This document shows, in pieces, positions 1,389 through 20,523 of a DNA stretch of 64,000 bases. Position 1 is the stretch's first letter. Each line of letters begins with the position of its first letter. The DNA is from Dehalococcoidia bacterium (lineage in GTDB: Bacteria > Chloroflexota > Dehalococcoidia > UBA2979). The notes beneath the pieces were generated by a model. It did not search any database. It worked only from the letters and a program-made list of their open reading frames with translations, and was not told the DNA's origin. Both the position numbers and the translations under genes were made by a program. The DNA lies in assembly GCA_965262725.1 (NCBI GenBank), contig OZ253555.1:1216001-1280000 (forward strand). Direction: 5' to 3'.

Positions 1389-1408
1389 AACGCCGAAGGG
1401 AGCAAGGG

Positions 1409-1804
1409 ATGGAGCTGCCGGCGGGGCTGCTCTACACGGCGGAGCACGAGTGGCTGAGCGTTGAGGGCGACCGCGGCACGATCGGGATCACCGACCACGC
1501 GCAGAAGCAGCTCGGCGACGTGGTGTACGTGGAGCTGCCCGAACCGGGGAGCCGCGTGGAGCCAGGGGCCGTCTTCGGCGTCGTCGAGTCGGTGAAGACA
1601 GTCTCGGATCTCTACGCTCCGGTGTCCGGCGAGGTGCTCGAGCGCAACGAGCGGCTCGCCGACGAGCCGGAACTCGTCAACGCGTCCCCCTACGGCGACG
1701 CGTGGATGCTGCGCGTGCGCATCGAGGACCCCCGACAGCTCGAGTCCCTGCTCTCACCGGAGGCCTACGACGAGTTCACCAGGCAGGAGCAGCGTGGCGC
1801 ATAG
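1409..1804 (+). CDS. gcvH: glycine cleavage system H protein
   Basis: YTAEHEW, IGITDHAQKQLGDVVYVELP, lipoyl-Lys motif ESVKTVSDLYAPVSG, VNASPYGDAW; ATG at 1409 after a purine-rich RBS. Confidence 0.96.
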   Translation: MELPAGLLYTAEHEWLSVEGDRGTIGITDHAQKQLGDVVYVELPEPGSRVEPGAVFGVVESVKTVSDLYAPVSGEVLERNERLADEPELVNASPYGDAWMLRVRIEDPRQLESLLSPEAYDEFTRQEQRGA

Positions 1805-3239: not shown

Positions 3240-4708
3240 ACGTCGTCGAGCGCGATATCGGCGCCCGCCTCGCCTTCGACCGCGGCGCACCGGGGCGACG
3301 GGCGGTGACCGTTCCCTCGTGGGAGGGGGAGCGCGCGCCGCTGCCGCCCGCCCGGCTGCTCCGCGATCGGCTCCGGCTGCCCGAGCTCTCGCAGGGCGAG
3401 GTCGTGCGCTACTACACGGCGCTCTCGCGATTGAACTATGGCATCGATTCAGGGACCTATCCGCTCGGATCCTGCACGATGAAGTACAACCCGAAGGTCG
3501 ACGACCTGATGGCAGCGCTTCCGGGATTCGCGGATGCCCACCCTCTGGAGGCGACGGAACGGGTCCAGGGGATCCTCCGCGTCGGCCAGGAGTTGCAGGA
3601 TGCGCTCTGTTCTCTCACCGGCTTCGCTGCGGCGAGCCTGGCGCCGGCGGCGGGGGCGCAGGGTGAGCTAGCCGGCGTCCTGATGGTGAAGCGCGCTCTC
3701 GCCGATCGCGGCGACCTCGCGACACGGCGCCGCGTCCTGGTGCCGGACAGCGCGCACGGCACGAATCCGGCGACGGCGGCGATGGCCGGCTTCACGGTGA
3801 CGCAGATCCCCTCCGCCGCCGACGGCTCCATGGATCGCGCGGCGCTCGAGAGCGAACTCGACGACAGCGTCGCCGCTGCGATGGTCACGATGCCCAACAC
3901 GCTCGGCCTCTGGGAGCGTGGCATCGACGAAGTGGCGGCACGGGTGCACGCGGCCGGCGCCTACCTCTACGCCGACGGCGCGAACCTCAATGCGATCCTT
4001 GGGCGGGCGCGCTTCAGGGATCTCGGTTTCGACGTGGCGCACGTCAACCTGCACAAGACCTTCTCGACCCCGCACGGTGGCGGAGGCCCGGGCGCCGGTC
4101 CCGTGCTGTGCGGAGCGGAGCTTGCCCCGTACCTCCCTGCCCCCGTCGTCGTGGCGGATGAGGTCGGCCTCTGTCTCGGGAGACCGGAGCGGTCGATCGG
4201 GCGCCTGCAGCAGTTCCATGGTTCATACGGCGTGCTCGTGCGCGCCTACGCCTACGTGCGGTCGATGGGGCTCGACGGCCTGCGGGCCGTCTCCGAGCAC
4301 GCAGTGCTGAACGCGAATTACCTGCGCGCGCTGCTCGTGCACGCGTACGACCTGCCGTACGACCAGGGCCGGGTCCTGCACGAGGTGGTGCTGGCGGGCA
4401 CCAGGCAGCGGCGCGAGCATGGGGTTCGCACGTACGACATCGCCAAGCGCCTCATCGACCACGGCTTCCACCCGCCGACCGTCTACTTCCCCCTGATCGT
4501 GGAGGAGGCGCTCATGATCGAGCCGACGGAGACGGAGCCCCGGGAGGCGGTGGAGGCATTCGCCGCCGCGATGCTCACCATCGCGGAGGAGGCGGCGCGC
4601 GACCCCGAACTCGTGCGCTCGGCACCAAGCGGCGCGCCGATCGGCCGACTGGACGAGGCGACGGCGGCTCGGCGGCCGGATCTGCGCTGGGTGCCCGCCG
4701 ACGAGTAG
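3236..4708 (+). CDS. gcvPB: glycine dehydrogenase (decarboxylating) subunit 2
   Basis: YPLGSCTMKYNP, PDSAHGTNPA, PLP-Lys motif HVNLHKTFSTPHGGGGPG, LMIEPTETE; ATGA overlap with the gcvPA stop. Confidence 0.95.
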   Translation: MNVVERDIGARLAFDRGAPGRRAVTVPSWEGERAPLPPARLLRDRLRLPELSQGEVVRYYTALSRLNYGIDSGTYPLGSCTMKYNPKVDDLMAALPGFADAHPLEATERVQGILRVGQELQDALCSLTGFAAASLAPAAGAQGELAGVLMVKRALADRGDLATRRRVLVPDSAHGTNPATAAMAGFTVTQIPSAADGSMDRAALESELDDSVAAAMVTMPNTLGLWERGIDEVAARVHAAGAYLYADGANLNAILGRARFRDLGFDVAHVNLHKTFSTPHGGGGPGAGPVLCGAELAPYLPAPVVVADEVGLCLGRPERSIGRLQQFHGSYGVLVRAYAYVRSMGLDGLRAVSEHAVLNANYLRALLVHAYDLPYDQGRVLHEVVLAGTRQRREHGVRTYDIAKRLIDHGFHPPTVYFPLIVEEALMIEPTETEPREAVEAFAAAMLTIAEEAARDPELVRSAPSGAPIGRLDEATAARRPDLRWVPADE

Positions 4709-4756
4709 CCCCGGCCACCGGCGTCCGTCGGCGACGCCTGGTCGGGGCGGCGCTCA

Positions 4757-5038
4757 CTACGGCCGGGCGGAATGCCCCCCGCCGGACATTGCCGGGAGGA
4801 TCTGAACCTCGGCGTCCTCGGGAACCGAGCGGACGAGGCCCGTGGCGGCGGTGACACCGTTCACGGCGAGCTGGATGCCCGGGCGCACCATGCCGTCCTC
4901 GACGATCAGCGCGTGGATGCCCGGGCACTCCGGATCTAGGTTCTCGATCACCTGCCGGAGCGTCGCCCCGTCGACCTCCACCGAGTGGCGGCCGCCGCAG
5001 AGCTGGCGCATCGACGCGGGGACAAAGACGATCGCCAT
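4757..5038 (-). CDS. MoaD/ThiS family sulfur-carrier (ubiquitin-like) protein
   Basis: Beta-grasp pattern VFVPASMRQLCGG...VDGATLRQVIENLD...LAVNG...VQILPAMSGG, with 6 extra residues after the GG. Confidence 0.85.
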   Translation of the reverse strand: MAIVFVPASMRQLCGGRHSVEVDGATLRQVIENLDPECPGIHALIVEDGMVRPGIQLAVNGVTAATGLVRSVPEDAEVQILPAMSGGGHSARP

Positions 5039-5111
5039 CGACGGCCCCCCAGGCCGGCGACAACCCCGCGGGGAGCCGCCGGCTTCTCTCGAGGTTGCGC
5101 CCGCGTCGTGT

Positions 5112-7394
5112 CTACTGCTCCGGCAGCATTTCCTCGAGTAGCACGCGCGGCGAGGCGGGAAGCGTCCGCGCCCGCACGCCGGTTGCCTGGTAGATGGCGT
5201 TTGCGATGGCGGCGAGCGGCGGCACGATCGGCACCTCGCCCACTCCGCGCACGCCGTAGGGGTGGCCGGGGTTCGGCTCCTCCACCAGGATGGTCTCGAT
5301 CTGCGGCACGTCGAGCGTGGTCGGCATGCGGTAGTCGAGCAGGCTCGCGTTGCGCATTCGGCCCTCGTCGTCGTAGACGTACTCCTCCGTCAGGGCCATC
5401 CCGATGCCCTGTACGGCACCTCCCTGAATCTGACCCTCTACGTAGTCGGGATGGATGGCCGTTCCGACATCCTGGATCGCGGTGTAGCGCAGCACCTGCA
5501 CCTTGGCAGTATCGGGATCGACCTCGACGTCGACGATGTGGCAGGCAAAGGTGGGCCCGACGCCCTCCGGCGTGACGTCCGCCTTCCCCTGCACCGTGCC
5601 GCCGGTGTGGTGCAGTTGCCTCGCAATCTCCACGAAGCTCAGTGATCGCTCCTCGGGGCCGCGGATGACGCCGTCGTCGTCGTAGTGCACGAGCGAGGGG
5701 TCGACCTCCCAGATGAGCGCTGCGCGGGCCTCGAGTTCGCGGCGAATCTCGAGGCCCGCCTCGTGGACGGCCCAGCCGGTGGCAAACGTGGTGCGGCTGC
5801 CGCCGGTGACGGCCGTGTAGCCGATCGAGTCGGTGTCGACGACGATGGGCTTCACCTGCTCGTAGTCGATGCCGAGCGTCTCGGCGATCTGCATGGCGAG
5901 CGCCGCTCGCTGCCCGCCGATATCCACCGAGCCCAGAACCAGACTGACGGTGCCGTCGCGGTTGACGGTAGCGTAGGCTGACGACTCCAGCCCGCCGTTG
6001 CTCCAGTAGCCCATGGCGATACCGCGTCCTCGGTTCGCGCCCTGCAGTTCTGAGTTCCAGTGTGGACTCTCCTCGGCGGCCGTCATCACGGCCTCGTTGC
6101 CGATCGAGTGGAAGGCGGCGCCGTCGATGCGGCGCGTGCCGTCGACGGCGGCGTTGTGCTGCCTGAGCTTGAGCGGATCGATGTCGAGCTGCTCGGCGAG
6201 CTCGTCGAGGGTCGATTCCATGGCGAAGGAGCCGGCAGGAGCCCCCGGTGCGCGGTAGGCGGAGACCTTGGGCTTGTTAACGATAACGTCGTAGCAGTCG
6301 GCGCCTTGGTTAGGGATTCTGTACGGGGAGAACATGCACATCCCGCCGGCGCCGACGGGCGACCCGGGATACGCGCCGGCCTCGTAGGCGAGGTAGGCCT
6401 CGGCGGCGGTGAGTGTCCCGTCGCGCTTCGCGCCGAGCTTCACGCGGATGTAGGTGGCCGATGTTGGCCCGGTGGCGGTGAGCACCTCGTCGCGCTGCAT
6501 GATCATCTTCACCGGGCGGCCGGTCTTCTTCGACAAGACGGCGGCCATAGGCTCCATGTAGATCGGGATCTTTCCGCCGAAGCCGCCCCCGATCTCCATC
6601 GGGACGACGCGGATCTTGGAGACGGGGAGCTTCAGCACGCGCGCGAGCTGGTCCCTCATCAAGAAGGGGCCCTGCGTGGAGAGCCAGACGGTCAACTCGC
6701 CGCTCTCGTTCCAGAGCGCCGTCCCATTGTGCGACTCGATGTAGCCCTGATGCGCCGTGCCCGTCTCGTACTCGCGCTCGATCACGACCTCGGCCTCGGC
6801 GAAGCCCTGGTCGAGGTCTCCGATCTCCAGGCGCAGGTGGCTCGCGGTGTTCGGGATGTCGTTCTCGCTGCGCGGGCCAGGGCTGAAGCGTGCCAGCATC
6901 TCCACCGTATGCATGTTGGGGTGGATGCGTGGGGCGCCCTCGGCCATCGCCTCGTGGACGGAGAGCACCGGCGGCAGCGGCTCGTACTCGACCTCGATGA
7001 GCTGGAGCGCGTCCTCGGCGATGTGCGGGTCGGTCGCGGCCACGGCAGCGACCGCATGCCCGTGGTAGAGCGCGCGGTCGGAGGCGAGCACGTTGTCGAC
7101 GAGCCACTTCAGGTTCGAGGCGGTCTCGCCGAGGTCCGTGATCGCGTCCTCCGCGGCTGGGAAGTCGGCCTGCGTGATCACCGCCTTCACTTCCGGTAGC
7201 GCGAGCGCCTTCGCCGGGTCGATCCGCACGATGCGGGCATGCGCGTGTGGGCTGCGCAGCACGCGCCCGTAGAGCATCCCAGGCAGCCGGATGTCGGATC
7301 CGTAGTTGGCTCGTCCGGTCACCTTGTCGGTTCCGTCCGGCCGCACGGGGCGGGTGCCCACCACGCGATACGGCTTCTTGGCGGGGGCGACCAT
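5112..7394 (-). CDS. xanthine dehydrogenase family molybdopterin-binding (large) subunit
   Basis: RPDGTDKVTGRANY, LRSPHAHARI, IGGGFGGK, AYRAPG, TGGSRTT, GQIQGGAVQGIG, RGVGE motifs. Confidence 0.93.
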   Translation of the reverse strand: MVAPAKKPYRVVGTRPVRPDGTDKVTGRANYGSDIRLPGMLYGRVLRSPHAHARIVRIDPAKALALPEVKAVITQADFPAAEDAITDLGETASNLKWLVDNVLASDRALYHGHAVAAVAATDPHIAEDALQLIEVEYEPLPPVLSVHEAMAEGAPRIHPNMHTVEMLARFSPGPRSENDIPNTASHLRLEIGDLDQGFAEAEVVIEREYETGTAHQGYIESHNGTALWNESGELTVWLSTQGPFLMRDQLARVLKLPVSKIRVVPMEIGGGFGGKIPIYMEPMAAVLSKKTGRPVKMIMQRDEVLTATGPTSATYIRVKLGAKRDGTLTAAEAYLAYEAGAYPGSPVGAGGMCMFSPYRIPNQGADCYDVIVNKPKVSAYRAPGAPAGSFAMESTLDELAEQLDIDPLKLRQHNAAVDGTRRIDGAAFHSIGNEAVMTAAEESPHWNSELQGANRGRGIAMGYWSNGGLESSAYATVNRDGTVSLVLGSVDIGGQRAALAMQIAETLGIDYEQVKPIVVDTDSIGYTAVTGGSRTTFATGWAVHEAGLEIRRELEARAALIWEVDPSLVHYDDDGVIRGPEERSLSFVEIARQLHHTGGTVQGKADVTPEGVGPTFACHIVDVEVDPDTAKVQVLRYTAIQDVGTAIHPDYVEGQIQGGAVQGIGMALTEEYVYDDEGRMRNASLLDYRMPTTLDVPQIETILVEEPNPGHPYGVRGVGEVPIVPPLAAIANAIYQATGVRARTLPASPRVLLEEMLPEQ

Positions 7395-7442
7395 GGTGCT
7401 TCCTTCCGTGCGGCGGCGCTGCCTTCAGCGCCCGCTCGCTCT

Positions 7443-7928
7443 CTAGCCCGCGGGAACGTCGACCCGGTCGGCGGCGTCCATGACGGCGGTGATGATCTTA
7501 TCGTAGCCCGTGCAGCGGCACAGGTTCCCGGCGAGCCAGTAGCGCACCTGCTCCTCGCTGGGACGGGGATGCTTGCTCAGGAGGGCGTGCGCCGCGACGA
7601 GGAAGCCCGGCGTACAGATGCCGCACTGCAGTGCGCCTCTCTCTAGGAAGGTCTCCTGCACAGGGATCAGCCCGTCGTGCCGGGCCAGTCCCTCCACGGT
7701 GGTCACCTGCGCGCCCTCGGTCTCGGCGGCCATCACCAGGCAGGCGTTCACGAGCCGGCCGTCTAGCATCACCGCACAGGCGCCGCAGTTGCCGTTGTTG
7801 CATCCCTCCTTGCTGCCCATCAGGCCGAGCCGATCCCGCAGCGCTTCGAGCAGCGAGTCGCGCTCGTCGGCGAGGAATTCCGTGGGTTCGCCGTTGATCT
7901 CGGCGGTGATGATGGTTCGGCTGCTCAT
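7443..7928 (-). CDS. (2Fe-2S)-binding small subunit of the molybdenum hydroxylase
   Basis: KEGCNNGNCGACAV...NAC and QCGICTPGF...GNLCRCTGY iron-sulfur motifs; ATG at 7928 overlaps the FAD subunit stop. Confidence 0.94.
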   Translation of the reverse strand: MSSRTIITAEINGEPTEFLADERDSLLEALRDRLGLMGSKEGCNNGNCGACAVMLDGRLVNACLVMAAETEGAQVTTVEGLARHDGLIPVQETFLERGALQCGICTPGFLVAAHALLSKHPRPSEEQVRYWLAGNLCRCTGYDKIITAVMDAADRVDVPAG

Positions 7929-8812
7929 GGGTGACTCGCGACCTCCTCGCCCCGGGCACGGCGCGCCGCGTCCCGCAGGGTGCGCTCCGTCAGCACGCCG
8001 GCCAGATGCCGCCGCTGCCGGACGGAGCCGCGCATGTCGTCGATCGGCCGCACCGCGGAGCTCGCGGCGGCGGCGGCGGCGGCGATGGTGTCGTCCGACA
8101 GCGGGTGCCCGACGAGCGCCTCTGTCGCCTCCTCCACGAGGAGCACGGTCGGTGCGGCGGCGCCGACCACGACGCACGCCTCGGCGACGTTCCCGCCATC
8201 GAAGCGCAGAGATGAGGCGACGTTGACGACGGCGATGTCCATCTCGTTCCGGGGGATGAACCTGAGGAAGCGTGCACCGCTCTCCGGTCTCGGCGCCGGC
8301 ACCTCGAGTGCGACCACGAACTCGCCCTCCTTGAGCACGTTCTGGCCCGGGCCCGTCGTGAAATGCGCCACGGGTACGCGCCGGTCGCCCCCCGGGCCGG
8401 CAATGATGGCGGTCGCGCCGAGCGCGATGAGAGGCGGAACGCCATCCGCCGCCGGCGACGAGTTGCAGAGGTTCCCCCCGAGGCTCGCGCGGCCCTGGAT
8501 TGCGGTTCCTCCGATCAGGGAGGTGGCGTCGATCAGCACGGGGTACGCTTTCCTGACGGCAGCATCGCCGTATATGCGGTAGCAGGGGGTCGCCGCGCCG
8601 AGGGTGAGTCCATCGCCATCCGCCCCGCGCACGGCGACCACTTCCGGGATGTGCTTGATGTCGACGAAGAGCGCGATCTCGTGGGTGCGCTCCCGCGCCT
8701 GGACGATCACGTCCGTGCCTCCGGCGAGGACGCGTGCGGTCGGCCCGCCGTCCGCGAGCAGCCGGGTGGCCTCCGCCACGTTCGATGCCCGCGCATACCT
8801 GAGGTCCTGCAT
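7925..8812 (-). CDS. FAD-binding medium subunit of the molybdenum hydroxylase
   Basis: LAGGTDV, IQGRASLGGNLCNSSPAAD, PIDDMRGS motifs; M-S-L gene order. Confidence 0.93.
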   Translation of the reverse strand: MQDLRYARASNVAEATRLLADGGPTARVLAGGTDVIVQARERTHEIALFVDIKHIPEVVAVRGADGDGLTLGAATPCYRIYGDAAVRKAYPVLIDATSLIGGTAIQGRASLGGNLCNSSPAADGVPPLIALGATAIIAGPGGDRRVPVAHFTTGPGQNVLKEGEFVVALEVPAPRPESGARFLRFIPRNEMDIAVVNVASSLRFDGGNVAEACVVVGAAAPTVLLVEEATEALVGHPLSDDTIAAAAAAASSAVRPIDDMRGSVRQRRHLAGVLTERTLRDAARRARGEEVASHP

Positions 8813-8857
8813 CCGCGCCCCTTTCGCAGTGCCGACGACTCCGCCGTCCGCACGAGC

Positions 8858-9616
8858 CTACTCTGGCGCCGCCACGTCGTCACGCGGAGCGGAAGCCTCG
8901 CGGGCGAGTCGCTCGAGCAGGTCGGCGACCAGCTCCGGTCGGTTGAGGAATGGCGAGTGCCCGACGGGCCACTCCACGACGGCCTCGGCCAGGCGTGAGT
9001 TCTCGCGCTGGGCGTCCGGCCGGATCGTGCGGTCGCGGCCGCACACCACGAACACCGCCGGGATCCCGCGCCATGCCACGCTTGTCGGCCGCTGTCGCGC
9101 CTCGGGCGGCCGCTCCTGCGGCGTGAGCCGCGCGGTCGCCCACGCCGCGTCCTCATCCGAGCAGTCTGAGTAGAAGGCCGTCCGCGCGTCGGCGGGTTCC
9201 ACGATGGTGGTCCCGTCGGGCTGCGGGCGCAGCGCAGCCTGGTATGAGGGATCCCGGTGGAGCACGGGATCGACGCCCTCCTCGTCGGGCATCGAGGCGC
9301 AGAGGTAGACGAGACTCCGCACGCGCCCGTGTCCCGCCGCGGCTTCCGTGATGATCGGCCCGCCGGCCGAGTGGCCGACGAGCACAAGCGGTCCGGGCGT
9401 GGCGTCCAGCGCCGCGCGTACGAGCCGCGCGTTCTCGTGCAGGTCGCCGATCACGCGCCGGTCGGGCGCAGTTGGGCGGCGGCGATCCACGAGCACGGTC
9501 GGAACGCCGCGCGGCTCGAGGGCGTCGACCACGCGTTCCCACGCCCACGGCCCGTGCCCGGCGCCGTGCACGAGGACGATCGTCGCCGCGGAGCTCGCGC
9601 TCGTGTCGTCAACCAC
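8858..9616 (-). CDS. alpha/beta fold hydrolase (esterase-like)
   Basis: LVHGAGHG, canonical GHSAGG nucleophile elbow, DRTI Asp and GHSPF His. Confidence 0.88.
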   Translation of the reverse strand: MVDDTSASSAATIVLVHGAGHGPWAWERVVDALEPRGVPTVLVDRRRPTAPDRRVIGDLHENARLVRAALDATPGPLVLVGHSAGGPIITEAAAGHGRVRSLVYLCASMPDEEGVDPVLHRDPSYQAALRPQPDGTTIVEPADARTAFYSDCSDEDAAWATARLTPQERPPEARQRPTSVAWRGIPAVFVVCGRDRTIRPDAQRENSRLAEAVVEWPVGHSPFLNRPELVADLLERLAREASAPRDDVAAPE

Positions 9617-10508
9617 GCGTCTCTCCCCCGCTTTGCGGGCCCGACGGCGCGGCCCAGCAGACTTGGATCCACGCGGCGAGCGAGGTGAGCGCCACGCCCC
9701 AGCCGTCCAGGCGCTCCCTAACCGCCGCCACGTCGACCTGGTGTCCCGAGCGCTCGCGCCAGCTCAGCAGCGCGCGCATCTGCTCCGGATCGCGGTCGCC
9801 GACCGTGTCGTCCGTGCGCTGGGCGTAGCGGACCGGCCGCCCGAGCGCGCGCGAGAATGCGCTGGCGACGGCCTCGAGCGTGAGTTCGTCGCCGGCGAGA
9901 TCGATCGCGGCCCCCTGCGTCTCCTCGGGTCGCGCAAAGACCTCAGCGACGACGGCGGCGATGTCGCGCACGGCGACGAGTTGCTGCCGCATCCCGGGGG
10001 CGAACGGGCCATCCAGCACACCTGCCTCGATGCGCTGGCGGCGAAGTAGGTAGTTCTCCATGAACGTCACTGGCCGGAGGAGCGTGTGCGGGACGCCGGC
10101 CTCGGCGAGGTACTGAGCGGCGCGCCACTTCACTTCGTAGTTCGTGACCCCGCTGCCGCCGTGCGCCGCCCCCGCCGAGGAGGAGTAGACGAGGTGTCGG
10201 ACGCCCGCGCCGGCGGCGGTGTCGGCCGCCCGGCACACTGATCGGAACTCGTGCTCCGGCGCGACGCCCGAGGGTTGCATCAGGAAGACGCCAGAGGCGC
10301 CGCGCATCGTCGCCACGAGGGAGGCCTCGGTAGTCCCGGTGGGGACGACCTCGACGCCGACCCGGGCGAGCTCGCGCGCCCGGGTCGAGGTGGTGTCGCG
10401 CGTCAGCGCGCGCACGCGCCACCCCCGGGCGAGCAACGCCTGCGACACGGCGTAGCCTTGTCGGCCGGTCGAGCCGAACACGACGACGGCGCTCCCGCGT
10501 CCGCTCAC
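9609..10508 (-). CDS. NmrA/HSCARG family NAD(P)-binding protein
   Basis: VFGSTGRQG, VRALTRD, HLVYSS, LRPVTFMENY, VAVRDIA. Confidence 0.88.
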   Translation of the reverse strand: MSGRGSAVVVFGSTGRQGYAVSQALLARGWRVRALTRDTTSTRARELARVGVEVVPTGTTEASLVATMRGASGVFLMQPSGVAPEHEFRSVCRAADTAAGAGVRHLVYSSSAGAAHGGSGVTNYEVKWRAAQYLAEAGVPHTLLRPVTFMENYLLRRQRIEAGVLDGPFAPGMRQQLVAVRDIAAVVAEVFARPEETQGAAIDLAGDELTLEAVASAFSRALGRPVRYAQRTDDTVGDRDPEQMRALLSWRERSGHQVDVAAVRERLDGWGVALTSLAAWIQVCWAAPSGPQSGGETRG

Positions 10509-11470
10509 GGTTCCCTCCGCGGCCAGCCGTCTGCCGCGCCGCCGTCTGGATCCGCGCCGGCTCCGAAGAAGTCGAGCAGGGCGTGTGCGTAGAGGTCGGG
10601 GGCGAGGAAGGGAGCGGCGTGGTCCATACCGTGCAGGATCCCGGCCCGCGCGTTCGGGATCGCCTCTACCACCCGCGCCTGGTCGGCGAGGGGATCGGCG
10701 CCGGACCGGAGCCGGCCCGCGTCACCGCAGAGCACGAGCGTCCTCGCGCGAATCGCCGCCACGCGCTCCCACGTCGCGTAGCACTCGATGGCGGCCGGGG
10801 CCGCGGCCGGCCAGCCCGCGGGGCCGTACGTGTCGGTGCCGGGGCCCGAGGCCTCCGCGCTCTCGCTCCGTCCGAAACCGCCACTCGACGGGGAGTCGGG
10901 CGGCGTGCCGGTGCCGTACTCGCTCTGGAACACGGAGAGGAAGCGGCGCTGCGCCTCGTCGAGCGTGACCCGATCGAGCATGTCCGAGTAGCGCTCCCAC
11001 AGCGCCAGGAGGTGCGCGCCATCGGCGGCGGGGGGCTCGTAGGGGACGCGTATGTGGTGTTCCTGGCTCTGGGCGCGCGCCCCGGCCCAGTCGAGGAACT
11101 CGACGAGGGCCAGCCGATCCACGCGCTCGGGGAAGGCGGCGGCGGCCTCGGCGGCGATCACAGCGCCAGTCATGTGGCCGAGAAGATGCGCGCGCTCGAG
11201 ACCGAGCCCGTCAAGCAGCTGCGGGACGCGCGCGGCGTACTGGGCCACCTCGCCGTAGGGGACCGGCGGTCGCGCCGAGTCGCCGCAACCGGGTGTGTCC
11301 ATCGCGATCGCTCGCAACTGCTCGCCGAGCAGCGGGAGCACCGCGTGAAAGAGTTGCGGGTTGGGCGTTGAGTGCAGCAGGACCAGCGGCGGGAGCGAGG
11401 CGGACCCCGCCTCGTAGTAGTGGAGCTGTCCCTCGGGCGTGTCGACGAAGCCCCGGCGGATGGATGCGAT
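10505..11470 (-). CDS. alpha/beta fold hydrolase-like protein with non-canonical elbow (GHMTG); start uncertain
   Basis: RRGFVDTPEGQLHYYEAG, LVLLHSTP, MDTPGCGDS, LLGHMTGAVIA; the best RBS (GAGGAGGAG) precedes an ATC codon at 11470, and the only upstream in-frame start in the ORF track is at 11587. Confidence 0.8.
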   Translation of the reverse strand: MASIRRGFVDTPEGQLHYYEAGSASLPPLVLLHSTPNPQLFHAVLPLLGEQLRAIAMDTPGCGDSARPPVPYGEVAQYAARVPQLLDGLGLERAHLLGHMTGAVIAAEAAAAFPERVDRLALVEFLDWAGARAQSQEHHIRVPYEPPAADGAHLLALWERYSDMLDRVTLDEAQRRFLSVFQSEYGTGTPPDSPSSGGFGRSESAEASGPGTDTYGPAGWPAAAPAAIECYATWERVAAIRARTLVLCGDAGRLRSGADPLADQARVVEAIPNARAGILHGMDHAAPFLAPDLYAHALLDFFGAGADPDGGAADGWPRREP

Positions 11471-11589
11471 TGCGCTCCTCCTCGCCCGCCCCCGCGCTAT
11501 GGCGGCGACTATAGTCGCTCGGCCGGCGGCGGCGTGCGCTACACTCCCCCGGCTCACGTTGAGCGCGCCGGTGAAGGAGGCGTCCACAG

Positions 11590-11916
11590 GTGATCTACGA
11601 GCTCCGTACGTATGAGGCCGTGCCGGGGAAGATGCGTGCTCTGCAGGCGCGCTTTCGCGACAAGACGCTTGCGATCTGGGAGAGACACGGCATCACGCCG
11701 GTGGGCTTCTGGACGTACGCTCACGGGGGGTGGACGAACCAGCTGGTCTACATGCTGCAGTTCGAGGATCTGGCGGACCGATCGGATCGCTTTGCGGCGT
11801 TTCGCACCGACCCGGAGTGGGCCGAGGCGGTGAGGGAGTCGGAGAAGGACGGGCCCCTCACGACGCGCACCCGCTCCGATTTCCTTCAGCCGACCGACTT
11901 CTCGCCGCTGAAGTAG
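11590..11916 (+). CDS. NIPSNAP family protein
   Basis: MIYELRTYEAVPGKM...HGITPVGFW...LVYML...FRTDPEW...LQPTDFSPLK; AAGGAGG RBS. Confidence 0.92.
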   Translation: MIYELRTYEAVPGKMRALQARFRDKTLAIWERHGITPVGFWTYAHGGWTNQLVYMLQFEDLADRSDRFAAFRTDPEWAEAVRESEKDGPLTTRTRSDFLQPTDFSPLK

Positions 11917-11956
11917 GGCTCCGGGCGGCGGCGGCGCCTGCCGGGGCTCCGGCGGG

Positions 11957-12736
11957 CTACCCCGTGAGGAAGGCGATGACCTCGCGCGCGAAGTGCTCGG
12001 GCTCCCGCGCGTAGAGCTGGCCTCCCACGTCCTTCACGAGCACGAGGCGGCCGTCCGGGACGAGGTCGACCGCGCGCTGATCCTCCTCGGCGAGCAGGTC
12101 GTGCTCCGGGGTGAGGAAGAGCGCCGGGCAGCCGAGCTTCGGCAAATCGGGAACAGGGTCGTAGCGGAAGGCCGCGTTGTAGGCCCAGTGGTATCGCTCG
12201 TGGTTGCCGACCATGTTCACGGCGGCGAGGGTCAGGAGCTCCAGCGAGGGCTCACCCCACCAGATCCGGCGGAAGCGATCCCAGGCGTACTGGAAATGGG
12301 AGCCGTCCGCGGCCAGTTCAAGCGGCGGCGCCCATGATTCCAGACGCGCGCGCCTCTTCTCCGGCGTGTAGGCGGGTATTCCCTGGAAGATTGCGTGGGT
12401 GACGCGGTCCGGGGCCGCCAGAGCGATGCGCAGGGCGATCGACGCGCCGGTGTGCGAACCGAAGATGGCGAACTGCTCCAGGCCGAGCGCGTCGATCGCC
12501 TCTAGGGTCGCCTCGGCGTAGACGGGGATCTCCTGCGCCTCGGGCGGCGGGTCCGACAGGCCGTAGCCGGGCGTGTCGAACGCGTAGGCGCGCAGGCGTT
12601 CGCCGAGCGGCGGCAGCGCCCACTGCAGGATGTCGGACGACTGCGGCGATTCATGCAGCAGCACGAGCGGCGGTCCGCTCTCGCCGTAGGCGCGGTAGTG
12701 CGCCTGCCCCCAACGGAAGTCCACGTAGCCGCGCAT
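11957..12736 (-). CDS. alpha/beta fold hydrolase-like protein with non-canonical elbow (GSHTG)
   Basis: MRGYVDFRWGQAHYR, LLHESPQSS, DTPGYGLSD, FGSHTGASIA; GAGGGAGG RBS before ATG 12736. Confidence 0.85.
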   Translation of the reverse strand: MRGYVDFRWGQAHYRAYGESGPPLVLLHESPQSSDILQWALPPLGERLRAYAFDTPGYGLSDPPPEAQEIPVYAEATLEAIDALGLEQFAIFGSHTGASIALRIALAAPDRVTHAIFQGIPAYTPEKRRARLESWAPPLELAADGSHFQYAWDRFRRIWWGEPSLELLTLAAVNMVGNHERYHWAYNAAFRYDPVPDLPKLGCPALFLTPEHDLLAEEDQRAVDLVPDGRLVLVKDVGGQLYAREPEHFAREVIAFLTG

Positions 12737-12872
12737 GCCGCCTCCCTCGCCAGCCGCTCGTCGGTCACCGGCCCCGGCGGAGGGCCGAGGGCCTCGGTAG
12801 CACCGTAGCGCCCACGCACACGCGCTGTCATCGACCGCCGCCCTCGGCCCCTGGGAGGGGCTGCGCCGTCCC

Positions 12873-12902
12873 TTGACAGGCGGAGCCGCCGGCGGTGACG
12901 AT
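12873..12902 (+). promoter_or_regulatory. putative sigma70 promoter for the thiolase-like operon
   Basis: Perfect TTGACA at 12873-12878, 18-nt spacer, weak -10 GACGAT at 12897-12902, about 50 nt upstream of ATG 12954. Confidence 0.4.
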
Positions 12903-12953
12903 GCCCGCGAGACCGCCGACGGGGCGAAGCGGTTCTCGCGGGGAGCGTGCGCG

Positions 12954-14105
12954 ATGGGCCTGCGCGGCACGGCGGCGATTATCGGCGTCGGCTCCGTTAA
13001 GCCGGAGCGGCGCATGCCGGGGCGCTCGGGTATCGGCGTTGCCGCCGAGGCCGGGATCAAGGCTGTGCGCGACGCCGGCCTCCGACGCGAGGACATCGAC
13101 GGGTTGATCACCCAGATGCCCGGTGAGACGCCGACGGCGCTTGCCGAGTACCTCGGGCTTCGCCCCACCTGGTCGCACGGCGTCGCGATGGAGGGGGCGA
13201 CCGGCACGACCTCCGTCACGCTTGCCGCGATGGCTCTCGATGCGGGGCTCGCGAAGAACGTCCTCGTCGTGATCGGAGGGCTCGCACCCGGCGGTGACAT
13301 GCCGACCGAGGGCGGAAGCCGCCTCCGCGAGCAGTTCGACGCGCCCTTCGGTCCAGCATCGGGCGCGACGGGCTGGTACGCGATGATCGCGAACCGCTAC
13401 GCCCATGAGTACGGCCTCACCGACGAGCAGCGCGCCGCCGTGGCCGTCCAGCAGCGCGAGAACGCCCACGGGAACCCCAACGCCATCTTCAAGGGCATTC
13501 CTCTGACCATCGAGGACGTCGTCACCTCGCGAATGATCTCCACGCCGCTGCGGCTGCTTGAGTGCGTGATGCCCACGGGCGGCGCCGAGGCGGTGCTGAT
13601 GACCTCGGCCGATCGTGCCAAGTCCGGCCCGCAGGAGCCGGTCTATCTGCTCGGCTCCGGGATGGCCGTCGACCACTACACGCTGGGCGGGGCATCCACC
13701 CTGACGACCTCGCCGGTCGCGATCTCGGCGCGGCGTGCCTTCGAGATGGCGGGCCTCGGGCCGCGGGACATGGACATGGTCTCGCTCTACGACTGCTACA
13801 CCATCACCGTTCTCATCTCGCTTGAGGACGCCGGCTTCGTGCCGAAGGGTCAGGCGGGCGCCTTCGTCGCGAGCACCGACATCACCTACAAGGGCGAGTT
13901 GCCGGTCAACACGCACGGCGGACAGCTCTCCTATGGGCAGCCCATGGTCGCCGGCGGGATGTCGCACGTGACGGAGTCGGTACTGCAGATGCAGGGGCGA
14001 GCGGGGGACCGGCAGGTCGAGAAGCTCGACTACTGCTTCGTCAACGGGTGAGGGGGCTTCCTGAGCGAGATGTGCTCGCTGGTCCTCGGGAAGGACCCCT
14101 CGTAG
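12954..14105 (+). CDS. thiolase-like (SCP-x/Ltp2-type) protein, predicted selenoprotein (TGA 14049-14051 read as Sec)
   Basis: AIIGVG, DAGLRREDIDGL, SRMISTPLRLLEC, LYDCYT, VNTHGGQLSYGQP. The ORF track stops at ...CFVNG, but the frame continues GGFLSEMCSLVLGKDPS* to TAG 14103-14105, which completes the usual family C-terminus. A hairpin follows the TGA. Confidence 0.85.
14052..14102 (+). promoter_or_regulatory. putative bacterial SECIS element
   Basis: 12 nt after the UGA: stem AGCGAG/CTCGCT closing loop ATGTG (17-nt minihelix); lower stems CTTCCTG/CGGGAAG and GGGG/CCCC. Confidence 0.6.
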
Positions 14106-14169
14106 CAGCGATGAGAATGCAATCGAGACCACCGGGCGGCCGTGTGCAGCGGGACGGGAGCTGATCCGG

Positions 14170-14589
14170 GTGAGCGAGGAATACGGTTTTCCCCTCCCGG
14201 TGCCGGGCGTCATTACGCAGCCCTTCTGGGATGGTCTGAAGGAGCATCGCCTCCTCGTGCAGCGCTGCCGCGCCGGGGGCCATCTCGTTCACTACCCGCG
14301 TGAATTCTGCCCGGTCTGCTACTCGGCGGATCTCGACTGGGAGCCCATGTCGGGCCGCGGGCGCGTCCACAGCTTCACGGTTGTGCACCGCGCCGCAAAC
14401 CCGGTCTTCCAGCAGGAGAAGGCACCGTACATCTTCGCGCTGATCCGGCTCGACGAGGGTCCGATCCTGACCTCGAATGTCGAGGGGATCCCGCACGAGG
14501 AGATACGGATCGAGATGCCGGTTGAGGTGTATTTCGACGACGTCACGGACGAGGTGACGCTTCCGAAGTTCCGCCCCGCCGCGCGCTAG
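14170..14589 (+). CDS. DUF35 family Zn-ribbon/OB-fold protein (thiolase partner)
   Basis: PFWDGLKEHRLLVQRC...YPREFCPVC...MSGRGRVHSFTVVH...PYIFALIRLDEGP...LPKFRP; adjacent to the thiolase-like gene. Confidence 0.92.
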   Translation: MSEEYGFPLPVPGVITQPFWDGLKEHRLLVQRCRAGGHLVHYPREFCPVCYSADLDWEPMSGRGRVHSFTVVHRAANPVFQQEKAPYIFALIRLDEGPILTSNVEGIPHEEIRIEMPVEVYFDDVTDEVTLPKFRPAAR

Positions 14590-14686
14590 TGCACCGAGGC
14601 CGGGATGTACCCGGTCGCGCATATGTCCGGAAGCAAGAGTCTCGCCGCATATGGGATGCGCGCGAACGCGAGAAGGGAGTCACGGG

Positions 14687-15058
14687 ATGAAAGTCGCCTA
14701 CGTTTTCAGTACATCGGGGCATACGGCGAGCTATAAGCTCGGTCAGATGATCCTGCCGCAGTTGGAGGCGGACGGACACGGCGTCGAGGTCGTCGGGATG
14801 ATGTTCTTCGACGACAACACGTTCATTCTCCGGCGCGGCGACCCGATCGGCGAGCGCCTGGCGAAGCAGGCCGCCGAGAAGAACATCCTGCTGATGATGT
14901 GCGATGGCTGCGCGCTCGAGCGCGGACTCGCGACCGGCGGCACCTGGCCCGAGAAGAGCGTCGCGGACGGCACGGTCGACGGAATCCACGTCGGCTGCTT
15001 CCCCGATCTCTACCAGGCGCTCGCCGGCAATCCGCCGGATCACGTGATCTCGCTCTAG
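14687..15058 (+). CDS. DsrE-related protein (SaoD/DsrE-like)
   Basis: MKVAYVFS...MILPQLE...HGVEVVGMMFFDDN...GERLAK...LMMCDGCALERGL...GCFPDLY...DHVISL; CxxC motif; AAGGGAG RBS. Family assignment is from memory of the pattern. Confidence 0.75.
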   Translation: MKVAYVFSTSGHTASYKLGQMILPQLEADGHGVEVVGMMFFDDNTFILRRGDPIGERLAKQAAEKNILLMMCDGCALERGLATGGTWPEKSVADGTVDGIHVGCFPDLYQALAGNPPDHVISL

Positions 15059-15098
15059 CGGGACGTCCCGCCGAAGGCGGCGGGCTGAGGGGGAGCCG

Positions 15099-15872
15099 AT
15101 GCCAGGGGTCAGGGAGGAGCTGATCGGCGGGGAGATCGCGCTCGTCACCCTCGACTTTCCGCCGGTGAATGCGCTCACGCCGGAGGCCTTCCTCGACATC
15201 ACGGCCACGTTCGACTCCTATCTCGCGCGCCCCGAGGTCCGGGTCTGCGTGCTGACCGCCGAAGGGGAGCGCGCCTTCTGCGCGGGCGTCGACGTGCGCA
15301 GTCGCCTCCCCGAAGGGGAGACGCAGGCGAGTCCCGGGGCGCACTACCGCCGGGCGCGCGAGACCTTCAACGCCATCTACGAGAGCGCCGTGCCTGTGAT
15401 CGGGGCGATCAACGGCCCGGCTCTGGGAGCGGGTCTCGCCATCGCCGCATCGTGCGACTACCTCGTGGCATCGACCCGCGCGAGCTTCGGCCTCCCCGAG
15501 ATCGATGTCGGGCTGCTCGGCGGTGCCCGGCATCTGCAACGCCTCTTCCCCCAGGGCGTGACCCGGCGCATGCACTACACCGCCGCGCGGGCGACGGCCG
15601 AGGAGGCGTACCGGCACGGCGCGGTGCACGCCGTGGTGCCGCCGGATGAACTCCTCGAGGCCGCGCTGGCCGAGGCGCGCGTGGTCGCCTCCAAGATGCC
15701 GGGTGGTATCCGCCTCGCCAAGGAGACGCTCAACCAGATCGAGTGGATGGAGCTGAAGGCGGGCTACCTCTACGAGCAGACGCGCACCGAGATCCTCCAG
15801 CGCACGGAGGACGCCGCGGAGGCGAAGCGGGCCTTCCTCGAGCGCCGTCCGCCCCGCTTCACCGGGAGCTGA
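15099..15872 (+). CDS. enoyl-CoA hydratase/isomerase (crotonase) family protein
   Basis: PPVNAL, AFCAGVD, PVIGAINGPALGAG, FGLPEIDVGLLGG, AFLERRPPRF. Confidence 0.92.
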   Translation: MPGVREELIGGEIALVTLDFPPVNALTPEAFLDITATFDSYLARPEVRVCVLTAEGERAFCAGVDVRSRLPEGETQASPGAHYRRARETFNAIYESAVPVIGAINGPALGAGLAIAASCDYLVASTRASFGLPEIDVGLLGGARHLQRLFPQGVTRRMHYTAARATAEEAYRHGAVHAVVPPDELLEAALAEARVVASKMPGGIRLAKETLNQIEWMELKAGYLYEQTRTEILQRTEDAAEAKRAFLERRPPRFTGS

Positions 15873-15908
15873 GCGGCCGCGCTCGGGCGCGCCTGTCGGC
15901 GCGCCGCG

Positions 15909-16856
15909 TCACGCGGTGGGGGACGGCCCCGGGCGATCGGCCGCAGGCGCCGCCCGATCGCGACGTGCTCGAGCGGCCGCCGCTTGCTCAGCGGCGTGGT
16001 AGGAGCTGCGCACCAGCGGGCCGGCCTCGACATGCGCGAATCCGAGTGAGAGCGCGTAGTCCCGCAGCGCCTCGAACTCATCCGGATGCCAGTAGCGCGC
16101 GACCGGGAGGTGCTTCGCCGTCGGCCGCAGGTACTGCCCGACCGTGAGCAGGTCGCAGCCCTGCTCGCGCAGGTCCTCGAAGGTGCGGTGGAGCTGCTCC
16201 ACGCGCTCGCCCAGACCGACCATCAGCCCCGACTTCGTCAGCATAGTCGGGTCGATCTTGTTGACGCGACGCAGCAATTCCAGGGAGCGGTCGTAGCGAC
16301 CCTTAGGCCGAACGCGAGGGTAGAGCTCGGCCACGGTCTCGGTATTGTGGTTGAGGACGGCGGGCCGGGCCTCCACGACAGTCGCGAGCGCCTCGCGGTC
16401 CCCCTCGAAGTCCGGGATCAGCACTTCGACCTCGCAGGTGGGGCGGCGGTGACGGACCGCACGGATGCAGGCGGCGAAGATCGAGGCGCCGCCGTCGGCC
16501 ACATCGTCGCGGTTCACCGCCGTGATCACCGCGTAGTCGAGGCCCATCGTCTCGACCGACTGCGAGAGGCGCAGTGGTTCGAGCTGGTCGATGGCGCCGG
16601 GCCGCCCGGACGTCACGGCGCAGAAGCCACACGCGCGCGTGCAGGTGTCCCCGAGGATCATGAAGGTCGCGGTACCAGAGTTGAAGCACTCGCCGATGTT
16701 GGGGCAGCGTGCCTCCTCGCACACGGTGTGGAGAGAGCGATCGCGGAGCAGGACGCGAATCTCCTCGAAGCGCTCCCCGGAGGGGAAGCGCGCGCGGAAC
16801 CACGGCGGCTTGCGCTCGCGGACGCGTGATCGCCGGCTCGTCGGCGCGCTAGTCAC
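15909..16856 (-). CDS. lipA: lipoyl synthase
   Basis: CEEARCPNIGEC, CTRACGFC radical-SAM motif, GQYLRP, GPLVRSSYHA. Confidence 0.97.
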   Translation of the reverse strand: MTSAPTSRRSRVRERKPPWFRARFPSGERFEEIRVLLRDRSLHTVCEEARCPNIGECFNSGTATFMILGDTCTRACGFCAVTSGRPGAIDQLEPLRLSQSVETMGLDYAVITAVNRDDVADGGASIFAACIRAVRHRRPTCEVEVLIPDFEGDREALATVVEARPAVLNHNTETVAELYPRVRPKGRYDRSLELLRRVNKIDPTMLTKSGLMVGLGERVEQLHRTFEDLREQGCDLLTVGQYLRPTAKHLPVARYWHPDEFEALRDYALSLGFAHVEAGPLVRSSYHAAEQAAAARARRDRAAPAADRPGPSPTA

Positions 16857-17595
16857 GACCGACCCCTCCCGCGGGGAGCGGCACCGCGCCCTCCCCGGCC
16901 TCGGCCGGCACCAGCTCCGCGTCGAAGCGCCGCTCGAACGCCGTGCCGAGCGCCGCCTCCGCCTCGGGCATCGCCACTGAGCGCCCGAGCGCGCGCTCGA
17001 GCGATGTCACGCCCGCATCCCGTATGCCGCACGGGACGATTGCATCGAACCAGCCGAGGTCCGTGCTCACGTTGAGTGCGAGCCCGTGCGCGGAGATGCC
17101 CAGCCGGATGCGGACGCCGACGGCCGCGATCTTCTCCAGAATCCCGTCCGGTCGGCCGTGCGCCGTCCACACGCCGGGTCGGCCAGAAACGCGCTCGGCC
17201 GGCACGCCGAAGTCGGCGAGCGTGTCGATCACCGTCGCCTCGAGCATGCGTACATAATCCGCCGCTCGCAGTCCGCGCCGTCTCAGATCGAGGATGGGGT
17301 ATACGACGAGCTGGCCGGGGCCGTGGAAGGTGATGTCGCCGCCCCGGTCCACCTGCTCCAGCGCCGCTCCCCTCGCCACGAGCTCGGCGGCGGGCACCAG
17401 CAGGTGCTCGAGGCCGCGCCCGTCGCCGCGGCTTCCGCTGCGGGCGCCGATCGTGTAGACGGGGGCGTGCTGGAGCAGCGCGAGCCGCTCAGCCCCTCCG
17501 CCTGCGGCGAGCGAGGCGTGCGCGCCCTGCATCCACGCCCGGGCGTCGGCGTACGAGATGGTGCCGGGGCGGTCGAGAAGGACAGGGCTCGCCAC
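16849..17595 (-). CDS. lipB: lipoyl(octanoyl) transferase
   Basis: LQHAPVYTIG, DRGGDITFHGPGQLVVYPILDL, KIAAVG, HGLALNV, IVPCGI; GTG start 6 nt after a TACGCT -10-like box. Confidence 0.95.
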   Translation of the reverse strand: MASPVLLDRPGTISYADARAWMQGAHASLAAGGGAERLALLQHAPVYTIGARSGSRGDGRGLEHLLVPAAELVARGAALEQVDRGGDITFHGPGQLVVYPILDLRRRGLRAADYVRMLEATVIDTLADFGVPAERVSGRPGVWTAHGRPDGILEKIAAVGVRIRLGISAHGLALNVSTDLGWFDAIVPCGIRDAGVTSLERALGRSVAMPEAEAALGTAFERRFDAELVPAEAGEGAVPLPAGGVGRD

Positions 17596-17736
17596 GCCGG
17601 TAGCGTACCTCACGAGCATGGCGGGTGGGGTAAAGTGTTCTCCCCTCGGCGGCGCGTGCCGCCTCGCGGCGGGGGATGATCTCCACGATGCGCGCCGCGG
17701 CGGGTGAGCCCGCTGCCGCGCGGAACGGGTGAGGCG

Positions 17737-20523
<2,787 letters not shown>

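Follow-up and report, generated by a model that had tools for sequence, protein, structure and literature searches.

A stretch of 64,000 nucleotides (nt) from the genome of a Dehalococcoidia bacterium of the phylum Chloroflexota (assembly GCA_965262725.1, contig OZ253555.1, positions 1,216,001 to 1,280,000), hereafter the window, carries on its plus strand a compact unit of four genes that encode, in this order, a thiolase-fold protein, a stand-alone DUF35 protein, a DsrE-like protein and a crotonase-family protein (Table 1). The first of these genes contains an in-frame TGA that is predicted to be a genuine selenocysteine (Sec) codon, and its product appears to be a retro-aldolase similar to the Sal aldolase of Comamonas testosteroni that would act on acyl-coenzyme A (CoA) substrates. 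The Sec-type clade of such Sal-like aldolases, with a previously unannotated Sec predicted in the active-site loop, is the main finding reported here. The four genes occupy positions 12954-15872 and are separated by 62, 97 and 40 nt; the start of each can be seen to be preceded by a GGAG-type Shine-Dalgarno-like motif. The unit is bounded because an alpha/beta hydrolase gene lies on the opposite (minus) strand upstream and lipA converges on the unit 37 nt downstream. This layout bears out the description, in an earlier note on this DNA, of four co-directional genes with gaps below 100 nt, and the gene identities proposed in that note hold at the family level by Pfam and NCBIfam profile scores.

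Table 1. Features of the four-gene unit and its surroundings, in coordinates of the window
Feature	Coordinates	Strand	Remarks
TTGACA hexamer	12873..12878	+	Within the 218-nt divergent intergenic region 5' of the aldolase gene
Predicted Sal-like thiolase-fold aldolase gene	12954..14107	+	383 amino acids; TAG stop codon at 14105-14107
In-frame TGA, codon 366 of the aldolase gene	14049..14051	+	Same alignment column across relatives
Hairpin resembling a selenocysteine insertion sequence (SECIS-like)	14064..14080	+	Covariation among relatives
Stand-alone DUF35 gene	14170..14589	+	GTG start codon; 139 amino acids; zinc ribbon and OB fold
DsrE-like gene, NCBIfam NF040913 (DsrE_rel_ELSE)	14687..15058	+	Profile score
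Crotonase-family gene	15099..15872	+	ECH_1 and NF005073 profile scores

Public gene calls frequently terminate at the TGA. Among the best 120 of the 3239 database homologs of the aldolase, 51 stop exactly at ...VNG and one ends far earlier, and the forms that end at the TGA are annotated as ‘thiolase family protein' or ‘acetyl-CoA acetyltransferase'. Such calls would be accurate if the TGA were a true stop codon, and the truncated frame could also result from a pseudogene lesion or an assembly error, with the protein ending, in each case, at Gly365; the lack of any homolog with Cys at position 366 and the z-score of only -2.1 for the local fold of the single sequence after the TGA (-30.4 kcal/mol) could be cited in favor of this possibility. 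It is, nevertheless, highly improbable in view of several lines of evidence. The Pfam profile Thiolase_C_1 aligns over its entire length (1-144 of 144; 174.7 bits) straight across the TGA of the window gene. TGA-bearing homologs of the aldolase are present in 15 of the 41 related genomes, at protein identities from 97% down to 42%, and the TGA occupies a constant column (V-N-G-U-G-G, residue 366) in the 16 genes from 13 genomes that were aligned and in two further genomes, with conserved in-frame protein sequence resuming after it. In the structural model, termination at the TGA would delete the last strand of the fold. Contigs from two other runs, which are possibly not independent of the source of the window, span the entire stretch; they carry 1 and 4 differences, and the TGA is unaffected by these.

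The RNA downstream of the TGA and the gene complement of the genome are both compatible with Sec insertion. A hairpin with a 6-bp stem (14064-14069/14075-14080) and a 5-nt loop, AUGUG, begins 13 nt past the UGA. Among 16 sequences, pairing is maintained in 85.4% of the 96 cells, and 11 cells, in three of the six pairs, show two-sided changes; none of 500 shuffles matched either of these values, and shifting the partner by 1-3 columns reduced the pairing to 14.6-51%. The hairpin was judged by this covariation and these shuffles. The genome carries selA (542.9 bits), selB (284.9 bits; G000:C1:1290211-1291359, ∼10 kb past the end of the window), selD (356.9 bits; G000:C1:2792527-2793462) and a tRNA-Sec (71.6 bits; anticodon tca according to ARAGORN), and selD contains one in-frame TGA of its own, which implies that the organism makes a Sec-containing selenophosphate synthetase. 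Across genomes, the TGA trait tracks this machinery: selA was detected in 13 of the 15 genomes with a TGA-type gene, the remaining two being only 73% and 71% complete, and a TGA-type gene was found in none of the six selA-lacking genomes with completeness of at least 90%. On a maximum-likelihood tree of 118 homologs, for which three rows shorter than 330 amino acids were left out and all rows were trimmed ahead of column 366, the Sec label requires two changes, compared with a mean of 38 for shuffled labels. The reading of the TGA as Sec, already proposed in the earlier note, is thus upheld by the conservation of the column, the covarying hairpin, the presence of the Sec machinery and the tracking with selA. 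TGA-type genes are present in only 2 of the 301 genomes in an even sample of the phylum, so that the clade appears to be concentrated in the family of the window and a few neighbors.

A paralog of the Sec-type aldolase in one of the related genomes (G029, L132:6001-7146) contains another TGA, which replaces the codon for the catalytic Cys281 (YD-TGA-YT). The hairpin after this second TGA is no better than shuffles (z-score of -0.74), and the codon could signify that Cys and Sec alternate as the catalytic acid or, equally possible, a pseudogene lesion.

The closest match of the window protein in the PDB is 9myr, the CtSal-Shy(DUF35) aldolase (phmmer, 7e-84; Foldseek, template modeling (TM) score of 0.93 at 40% identity). 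The Foldseek query was the AlphaFold model of the aldolase, with a mean predicted local distance difference test (pLDDT) score of 92.7. The next matches are an uncharacterized Sphaerobacter protein, 4u4e, and then the TcLtp2-ChsH2(DUF35) steroid aldolase, 6ok1 (2e-47; Foldseek rank 3), which makes the comparison with hydratase/retro-aldol sets of the Ltp2-ChsH2 type, drawn in the earlier note, an apt one. According to the report on CtSal-Shy of Comamonas testosteroni (Rolfe et al., J Biol Chem 2025, PMC12329534), Tyr302 and Cys304 of the Y-D-C-Y motif are essential by mutagenesis, Gln347 and Gln352 are proposed to stabilize the thiolate, the oxyanion hole is proposed to consist of Gln161 and the backbone of Gly391, and the position of the nucleophilic Cys of SCP2-thiolase is taken by Gly. 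In the HMMER alignment that was used to map residues, with the PDB chain of CtSal offset by 24 residues, Y302-D303-C304-Y305 of CtSal corresponds to Y279-D280-C281-Y282 of the window aldolase, Gln347 and Gln352 correspond to Q324 and Q329, Gly391 to G368 and Thr389 to U366.

Two defining features of thiolases, in contrast, are missing from a protein that otherwise shares the fold of the classical and SCP2-type thiolases and has Y-D-C-Y at the HDCF loop and U-G-G at the CxG loop (the fingerprint motifs of thiolases are named CxS, NEAF/HDCF, GHP and CxG in PMC7682436). In the archaeal thiolases 7yvy and 6esq, the nucleophile Cys is found at the position that aligns with G81, and Q329 occupies the position of the GHP His; G81, Y279, D280, C281 and Q329 are all invariant among 105 aligned homologs. 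None of the NCBIfam thiolase models reaches its cut-off with the window protein (the best score is 320.3 compared with 421), and Thiolase_N and Thiolase_C stay below the Pfam cut-offs. Identification of the protein as a thiolase fails because Gly81 and Gln329 replace the nucleophile Cys and the GHP His, and given that the CtSal catalytic motif is present, the name ‘Sec-thiolase', used in the earlier note, is a misnomer: the Sec part stands, whereas the thiolase part gives way to the aldolase motif of CtSal. By active-site criteria, the enzyme is a predicted Sal-like retro-aldolase, not a thiolase.

The likeness to CtSal-Shy consists in the YDCY motif, the Gln pair, the Gly at the nucleophile position and the G-G oxyanion-hole loop, and extends to the DUF35 partner with a zinc ribbon of the Cys3His1 pattern and to the presumed supply of the substrate by a hydratase. 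However, CtSal has Thr where the window aldolase has the predicted Sec and lacks C204 and C361 (see below); its DUF35 domain is fused to a MaoC-type hydratase (Shy), whereas the DUF35 protein of the window is free-standing and the candidate hydratase is the crotonase; and the substrate of CtSal is the bile-acid C5 side chain, in Comamonas testosteroni, as opposed to a host from a Chloroflexota lineage. The TcLtp2-ChsH2 system shares the combination of a thiolase-fold aldolase, DUF35 and a hydratase, but Ltp2 uses Tyr294/Tyr344 and has a YDHF motif, compared with YDCY and a residue other than Tyr at the Tyr344 position in the window aldolase.

Sec366 is located two residues ahead of the oxyanion-hole Gly368, such that U366-G367-G368 form the oxyanion-hole loop. 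The U-x-G arrangement falls in the loop that bears the C-x-G acid/base Cys of classical thiolases, and U366-x-G368 is presumably equivalent to Cys378-x-Gly380 of a classical thiolase. The HDCF and CxG cysteines are said to be spatially equivalent, reportedly in work of Harijan et al. from 2013. Because Sec366 is at the CxG position, two residues before the oxyanion-hole Gly, it should adjoin Cys281, a proximity suggested by the motif equivalence together with the CtSal paper. The 68 read-through sequences among the best 120 homologs have Asn at position 366 in 66 cases, and Lys and Ile in one case each. The Sec and Asn groups differ at five well-conserved positions only. Cys204 is present in 51 of the 52 members of the Sec group, compared with Ile in 60 of the 66 members of the Asn group, and the same fraction of the Sec group (51/52) has Cys361, compared with Ala in 55 of the 66 Asn-type sequences.

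Two proteins nested within the Sec clade (P0034 and P0041) are of the Asn type (NNNGGG) and have Ala in place of Cys361; Sec and its partner Cys361 appear to have been lost together in this lineage.

The position of the Sec leaves room for a different view of the enzyme, namely, a true C-C thiolase-type lyase that would cleave a 3-ketoacyl-CoA substrate, with Sec366 as the nucleophile forming an acyl-selenoester and Cys281 as the acid/base. Sec surpasses Cys both as a nucleophile and as a leaving group, it is found here in the U-x-G equivalent of C-x-G, beside the oxyanion-hole Gly, thiolysis would require a new nucleophile given that the canonical one is missing, and two additional Cys have been acquired in the Sec clade. 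Such a lyase is unlikely, though: all catalytic residues of CtSal, namely, Tyr, Cys and two Gln, are invariant among the Sec and Asn forms alike, which argues for one shared aldolase chemistry, the unit includes no gene for a 3-hydroxyacyl-CoA dehydrogenase, and the CxG Cys of classical thiolases is described as an acid/base residue, not the nucleophile (PMC7682436). The Sal-like retro-aldolase is, accordingly, the reading that is pursued below. A description of a Sec-containing thiolase or thiolase-fold protein was not found in the part of the literature covered, which consisted of main texts, and lists of selenoprotein families in supplements may bear on the novelty; the word ‘thiolase' occurs 0 times in the text of the Haft preprint.

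The DUF35 protein (scores of 76.3 for OB_ChsH2_C and 47.7 for zf-ChsH2 in Pfam) is the expected scaffold partner of the aldolase, and 19 of the 20 other loci have a DUF35 gene right beside that of the aldolase. Its zinc ribbon, considered as a sequence pattern, is C33-x4-H38-x8-C47-x2-C50 (residues 33-50, 14266-14319), that is, of the Cys3His1 type, and in PMC12329534, a Cys3His1 zinc finger is reported only for Shy-type DUF35 domains. This variant of the ribbon is confined to the genus of the window: it is found in none of the 14 aligned orthologs from other genera, most of which keep CxxC...CxxC. The genus with the Cys3His1 DUF35 is the same genus in which the DsrE-like gene lies directly downstream, which might be a coincidence.

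The crotonase-family protein scores 151.1 bits with ECH_1 and 297.5 bits with NF005073, just past the cut-off of 296, keeps the first catalytic Glu, E134, and is the presumed hydratase of the module. In a genome of another genus (G019), in which the Sec-type aldolase is 77% identical to that of the window, the gene order is aldolase-DUF35-crotonase, with the crotonases 62% identical. Because only ∼50 nt separate the DUF35 and crotonase genes in this genome, there is no room for a DsrE gene in its unit. The crotonase ortholog in another related genome (G004, L141:5150-5917) contains an in-frame TAG in place of the codon for Gln146, which may reflect decay of the downstream half of the unit or a sequencing error.

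The product of the third gene belongs to NF040913, ‘SaoD/DsrE family protein', which is the non-SAO branch (score of 190.7, cut-off of 152), whereas it does not reach the cut-offs of the SaoD model, NF040732 (116.2 compared with 169), and of Pfam DsrE (18.3 compared with 22.7). The earlier note had considered this protein a candidate SaoD, to be checked by hidden Markov model (HMM) classification of 14687-15058, and the classification favors NF040913 instead. SaoD represents a sister family, with the DsrE fold, an invariant CxxC and a third Cys, but is encoded in the selenoprotein-rich SAO locus, whereas there are no SAO genes beside the DsrE-like gene of the window. Among 10 DsrE-like sequences, H31, C72-x-x-C75 and C104 are invariant. 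By our own reading, C72 would coincide with the active-site Cys of DsrE/TusD, and the combination of the CxxC with the His/Cys pattern suggests metal or metalloid binding. The structural model (pLDDT of 92.7) matches the folds of YchN, DsrE and TusD at TM scores of 0.63-0.67, whereas a PDB sequence search with the DsrE-like profile returned nothing meaningful. Unlike these sulfur-relay proteins, the DsrE-like protein of the window is a single-copy protein, without DsrF/H or TusB/C partners encoded nearby.

With moderate confidence, the locus can be interpreted as a three-gene Sec-aldolase module for the cleavage of acyl-CoA side chains, into which a functionally separate DsrE gene has been inserted. 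The crotonase-family enzyme would hydrate a 2-enoyl-CoA to the 3-hydroxyacyl-CoA, and the thiolase-fold protein, held by DUF35, would then split the C-alpha-C-beta bond in a retro-aldol reaction, yielding a short acyl-CoA and an aldehyde or ketone. The homology with CtSal suggests that the base would be Tyr279 and the acid Cys281, with Gln324/Gln329 and the backbone of Gly368 completing the active site. UGA-366 would be decoded as Sec with the help of the hairpin 13 nt downstream, and Sec366 and Cys281, we infer, might constitute a selenol/thiol acid-base dyad that could close to an Se-S bond, an arrangement with which the co-varying Cys204 and Cys361 would be consistent. The DsrE-like gene would have been acquired by the genus separately, landing between the DUF35 and crotonase genes, and most likely belongs functionally with a cassette that consists of genes for an NfuA-like protein, a CUAEP-tail radical S-adenosylmethionine (SAM) selenoprotein and an ATP-grasp protein.

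Several observations weigh against this interpretation, some with regard to the module itself and others with regard to the separateness of the DsrE-like gene. Sec insertion is a prediction from the sequence, and Cys is found at position 366 in none of the 68 read-through homologs, the replacement of Asn by Sec being atypical of selenoproteins. The proximity of U366 to C281, C204 and C361 is a prediction from the motif equivalence and the CtSal paper, and C361 and U366 would face opposite sides if the strand was regular. Only 7 of the 20 related loci have a crotonase-family gene within ∼6 kb, and in only three of these is the identity 62% or higher. The crotonase of the window has His159 aligned with the Glu of the ‘ALEW' segment in 2pbp, which we take to be the second catalytic Glu of crotonase; hydration is assumed because this His is found where the second Glu is expected. 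As for the DsrE-like gene, it adjoins the genes of the unit in all five genomes of the genus, with short gaps, a Shine-Dalgarno-like motif and no promoter or terminator match. Its GC content at third codon positions (0.879) is not anomalous, and the base composition shows no sign of foreign origin. The Sec-type aldolase is present in all nine DsrE-positive relatives (five of five genera) compared with 6 of the 32 DsrE-negative ones. In two other genera, the DsrE gene adjoins a CoA-transferase gene (G011) and a crotonase paralog with 31% identity (G013), and the gene for the radical SAM protein is adjacent to it in only 17 of 77 loci.

Many of these features are those that would be expected if the DsrE-like protein was a working part of the unit, either as a sulfur or selenium relay that loads or regenerates the selenol of the aldolase, or as a participant in reactions of the CoA ester that involve C-S, C-Se or C-metalloid bonds. 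Also in line with such a role are the invariant CxxC, Cys and His on a DsrE fold, the accompaniment of the relatives of this protein by selenoproteins (in the SAO locus and in the form of the CUAEP-tail radical SAM proteins), and the loss of one Cys from the DUF35 zinc ribbon only in the genus with the linked DsrE gene. A role of this kind, which in the earlier note took the form of participation in acyl-CoA chemistry, is nonetheless improbable given the genomic distribution of the family. Relatives of the DsrE-like gene were confirmed in 546 of 599 candidate stretches, and the analysis covered the 80 best; a thiolase, DUF35 or crotonase homolog is encoded within up to 8 kb in only three of these 80 loci, all from near-identical relatives of the window, and in none of the other 77. 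Thus, the linkage does not recur beyond near-identical relatives, an outcome that the earlier note itself had listed as counting against its proposal. In addition to the G019 unit that does without a DsrE gene, the DsrE gene and the Sec-type aldolase gene are on separate contigs in four other genera of the family (G010, G011, G013 and G019), where the DsrE gene is accompanied by ABC permease and cyclase genes, by a NifU-like gene, and by the CoA-transferase gene and the crotonase paralog mentioned above. The adjacency of the DsrE and crotonase genes in G013 was considered as a possible conserved pair and rejected, this crotonase being only 31% identical to that of the window.

The junction between the DUF35 and DsrE genes is itself a site of insertion. 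A gene for a transposase with an integrase (rve) core domain lies between the two genes in two genomes of the same genus as the window, G003 (L037:2012-2995) and G004 (L038:1985-2923), and because the two transposases are only 28% identical, these unrelated insertion sequence elements would represent independent insertions at one junction. The co-occurrence of the DsrE gene and the aldolase among the relatives (9/9 compared with 6/32) is not an independent test because these genomes are kin, and the distant genomes break the pattern, with an aldolase homolog (E <= 1e-50) found in none of five DsrE-positive ones; conversely, six genomes with the Sec-type aldolase yield no match to the DsrE protein. 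A shared ‘selenium trait' alone fails to explain the overlap because selA is present in 31 of the 41 genomes, Sec use being common in the class. The two-chain structure prediction for DUF35 and the DsrE-like protein gave a score of 0.00 against a mark of 0.32, a result that counts neither for nor against binding.

The relationships of the DsrE-like protein also suggest a separate acquisition. Genes of the NF040913 type are found in only 6 of the 401 genomes of the class, yet are widespread outside it. The window protein is 77-80% identical to those from four metagenome-assembled genomes titled Entotheonellaceae, Alcaligenaceae, Acidobacteriota and Methylocapsa, with which it also clusters in a FastTree tree (support values aside), but shows only 60-67% identity to the DsrE proteins of its own family. 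The DsrE-like gene is, then, probably a lineage-specific insertion into the operon. A more ambitious proposal holds that the Sec-type clade is a new kind of selenoenzyme, a retro-aldolase of the thiolase superfamily in which Sec instead of Asn at the former CxG site, joined by two added Cys, forms an Se/S site for Se-dependent C-C (or C-S/C-Se) reactions of CoA esters, with an acyl-selenoester as one possible intermediate; in the genus of the window, a DsrE relay borrowed from the CUAEP-tail radical SAM selenoprotein system would service the selenol. This proposal is a long shot.

The preferred reading of the DsrE-like gene as an insertion leads to the question of its actual partners. The most common neighbor of the DsrE genes, in 17 of the 77 other loci, is a CUAEP/CCAEP-tail radical SAM (seleno)protein of the family NF040546, which is related to ArsL; representatives of this neighbor score 609.8 and 645.4 bits. 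Rarer neighbors in the 77 loci include ZnuA (five), a ZigA-like GTPase (four), and NfuA-like and ATP-grasp genes. The CUAEP-tail radical SAM protein is encoded in eight of the nine DsrE-positive relatives compared with 11 of the 32 DsrE-negative ones, and in four of the five distant DsrE-positive genomes. The window's own genome has the NfuA-like/radical SAM/ATP-grasp cassette at G000:C1:930645-934159, beyond the borders of the window and at a distance of 298 kb from the DsrE gene. The radical SAM gene of this cassette contains one in-frame TGA (NF040546, 518.8 bits, cut-off of 500), and in other phyla, this set of genes flanks DsrE-like genes of the NF040913 family. These associations suggest an uncharacterized system of DsrE and ArsL-related radical SAM proteins. 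In the preprint of Haft and Gwadz (2022), the CUAEP-tail radical SAM protein is called uncharacterized, and metal-uptake genes are named as the usual neighbors of the non-SAO DsrE branch.

Transcription signals around the unit are sparse. A consensus scan of positions 12500-16200 detected no full sigma-70-type promoters and no intrinsic terminators, so that the TTGACA sequence upstream of the aldolase gene qualifies as a -35-like hexamer only; of the TTGACA promoter invoked in the earlier note, the hexamer remains and the full promoter does not. One metatranscriptome contig spans 12992-13178, and a contig from a run guessed to be RNA spans 12939-13175, in both cases covering the 5' part of the aldolase gene; cover is missing at the DsrE gene and at all junctions, and this absence is uninformative with respect to co-transcription. 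The genes upstream of the unit (279-12736) encode the T and P subunits of the glycine cleavage system, a three-subunit molybdenum hydroxylase, three alpha/beta hydrolases, an NmrA-like protein and a NIPSNAP protein, and those downstream (15909-20523) are lipA, lipB and the gene for pyruvate dehydrogenase E1. Among these neighbors, neither a 3-hydroxyacyl-CoA dehydrogenase gene nor a CoA ligase gene adjoins the unit.

If the Sec reading is true, the clade represents an unrecognized selenoprotein family in C-C-cleaving acyl-CoA metabolism, an area in which selenium is unexpected, and in this family Sec replaces Asn, rather than Cys, in a catalytic loop. Many public gene calls of the clade, among them 51 of the best 120 homologs, would then be at least 17 residues short. 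The natural series of Sec, Asn and Thr found at a single active-site position of Sal aldolases should be useful to enzymologists. The association of DsrE-like proteins of the NF040913 family with the ArsL-related CUAEP-tail radical SAM (seleno)protein provides a lead for two uncharacterized families. For the organisms themselves, a true Sec codon would mean that part of the capacity of these Chloroflexota to degrade organic matter is tied to the supply of selenium.

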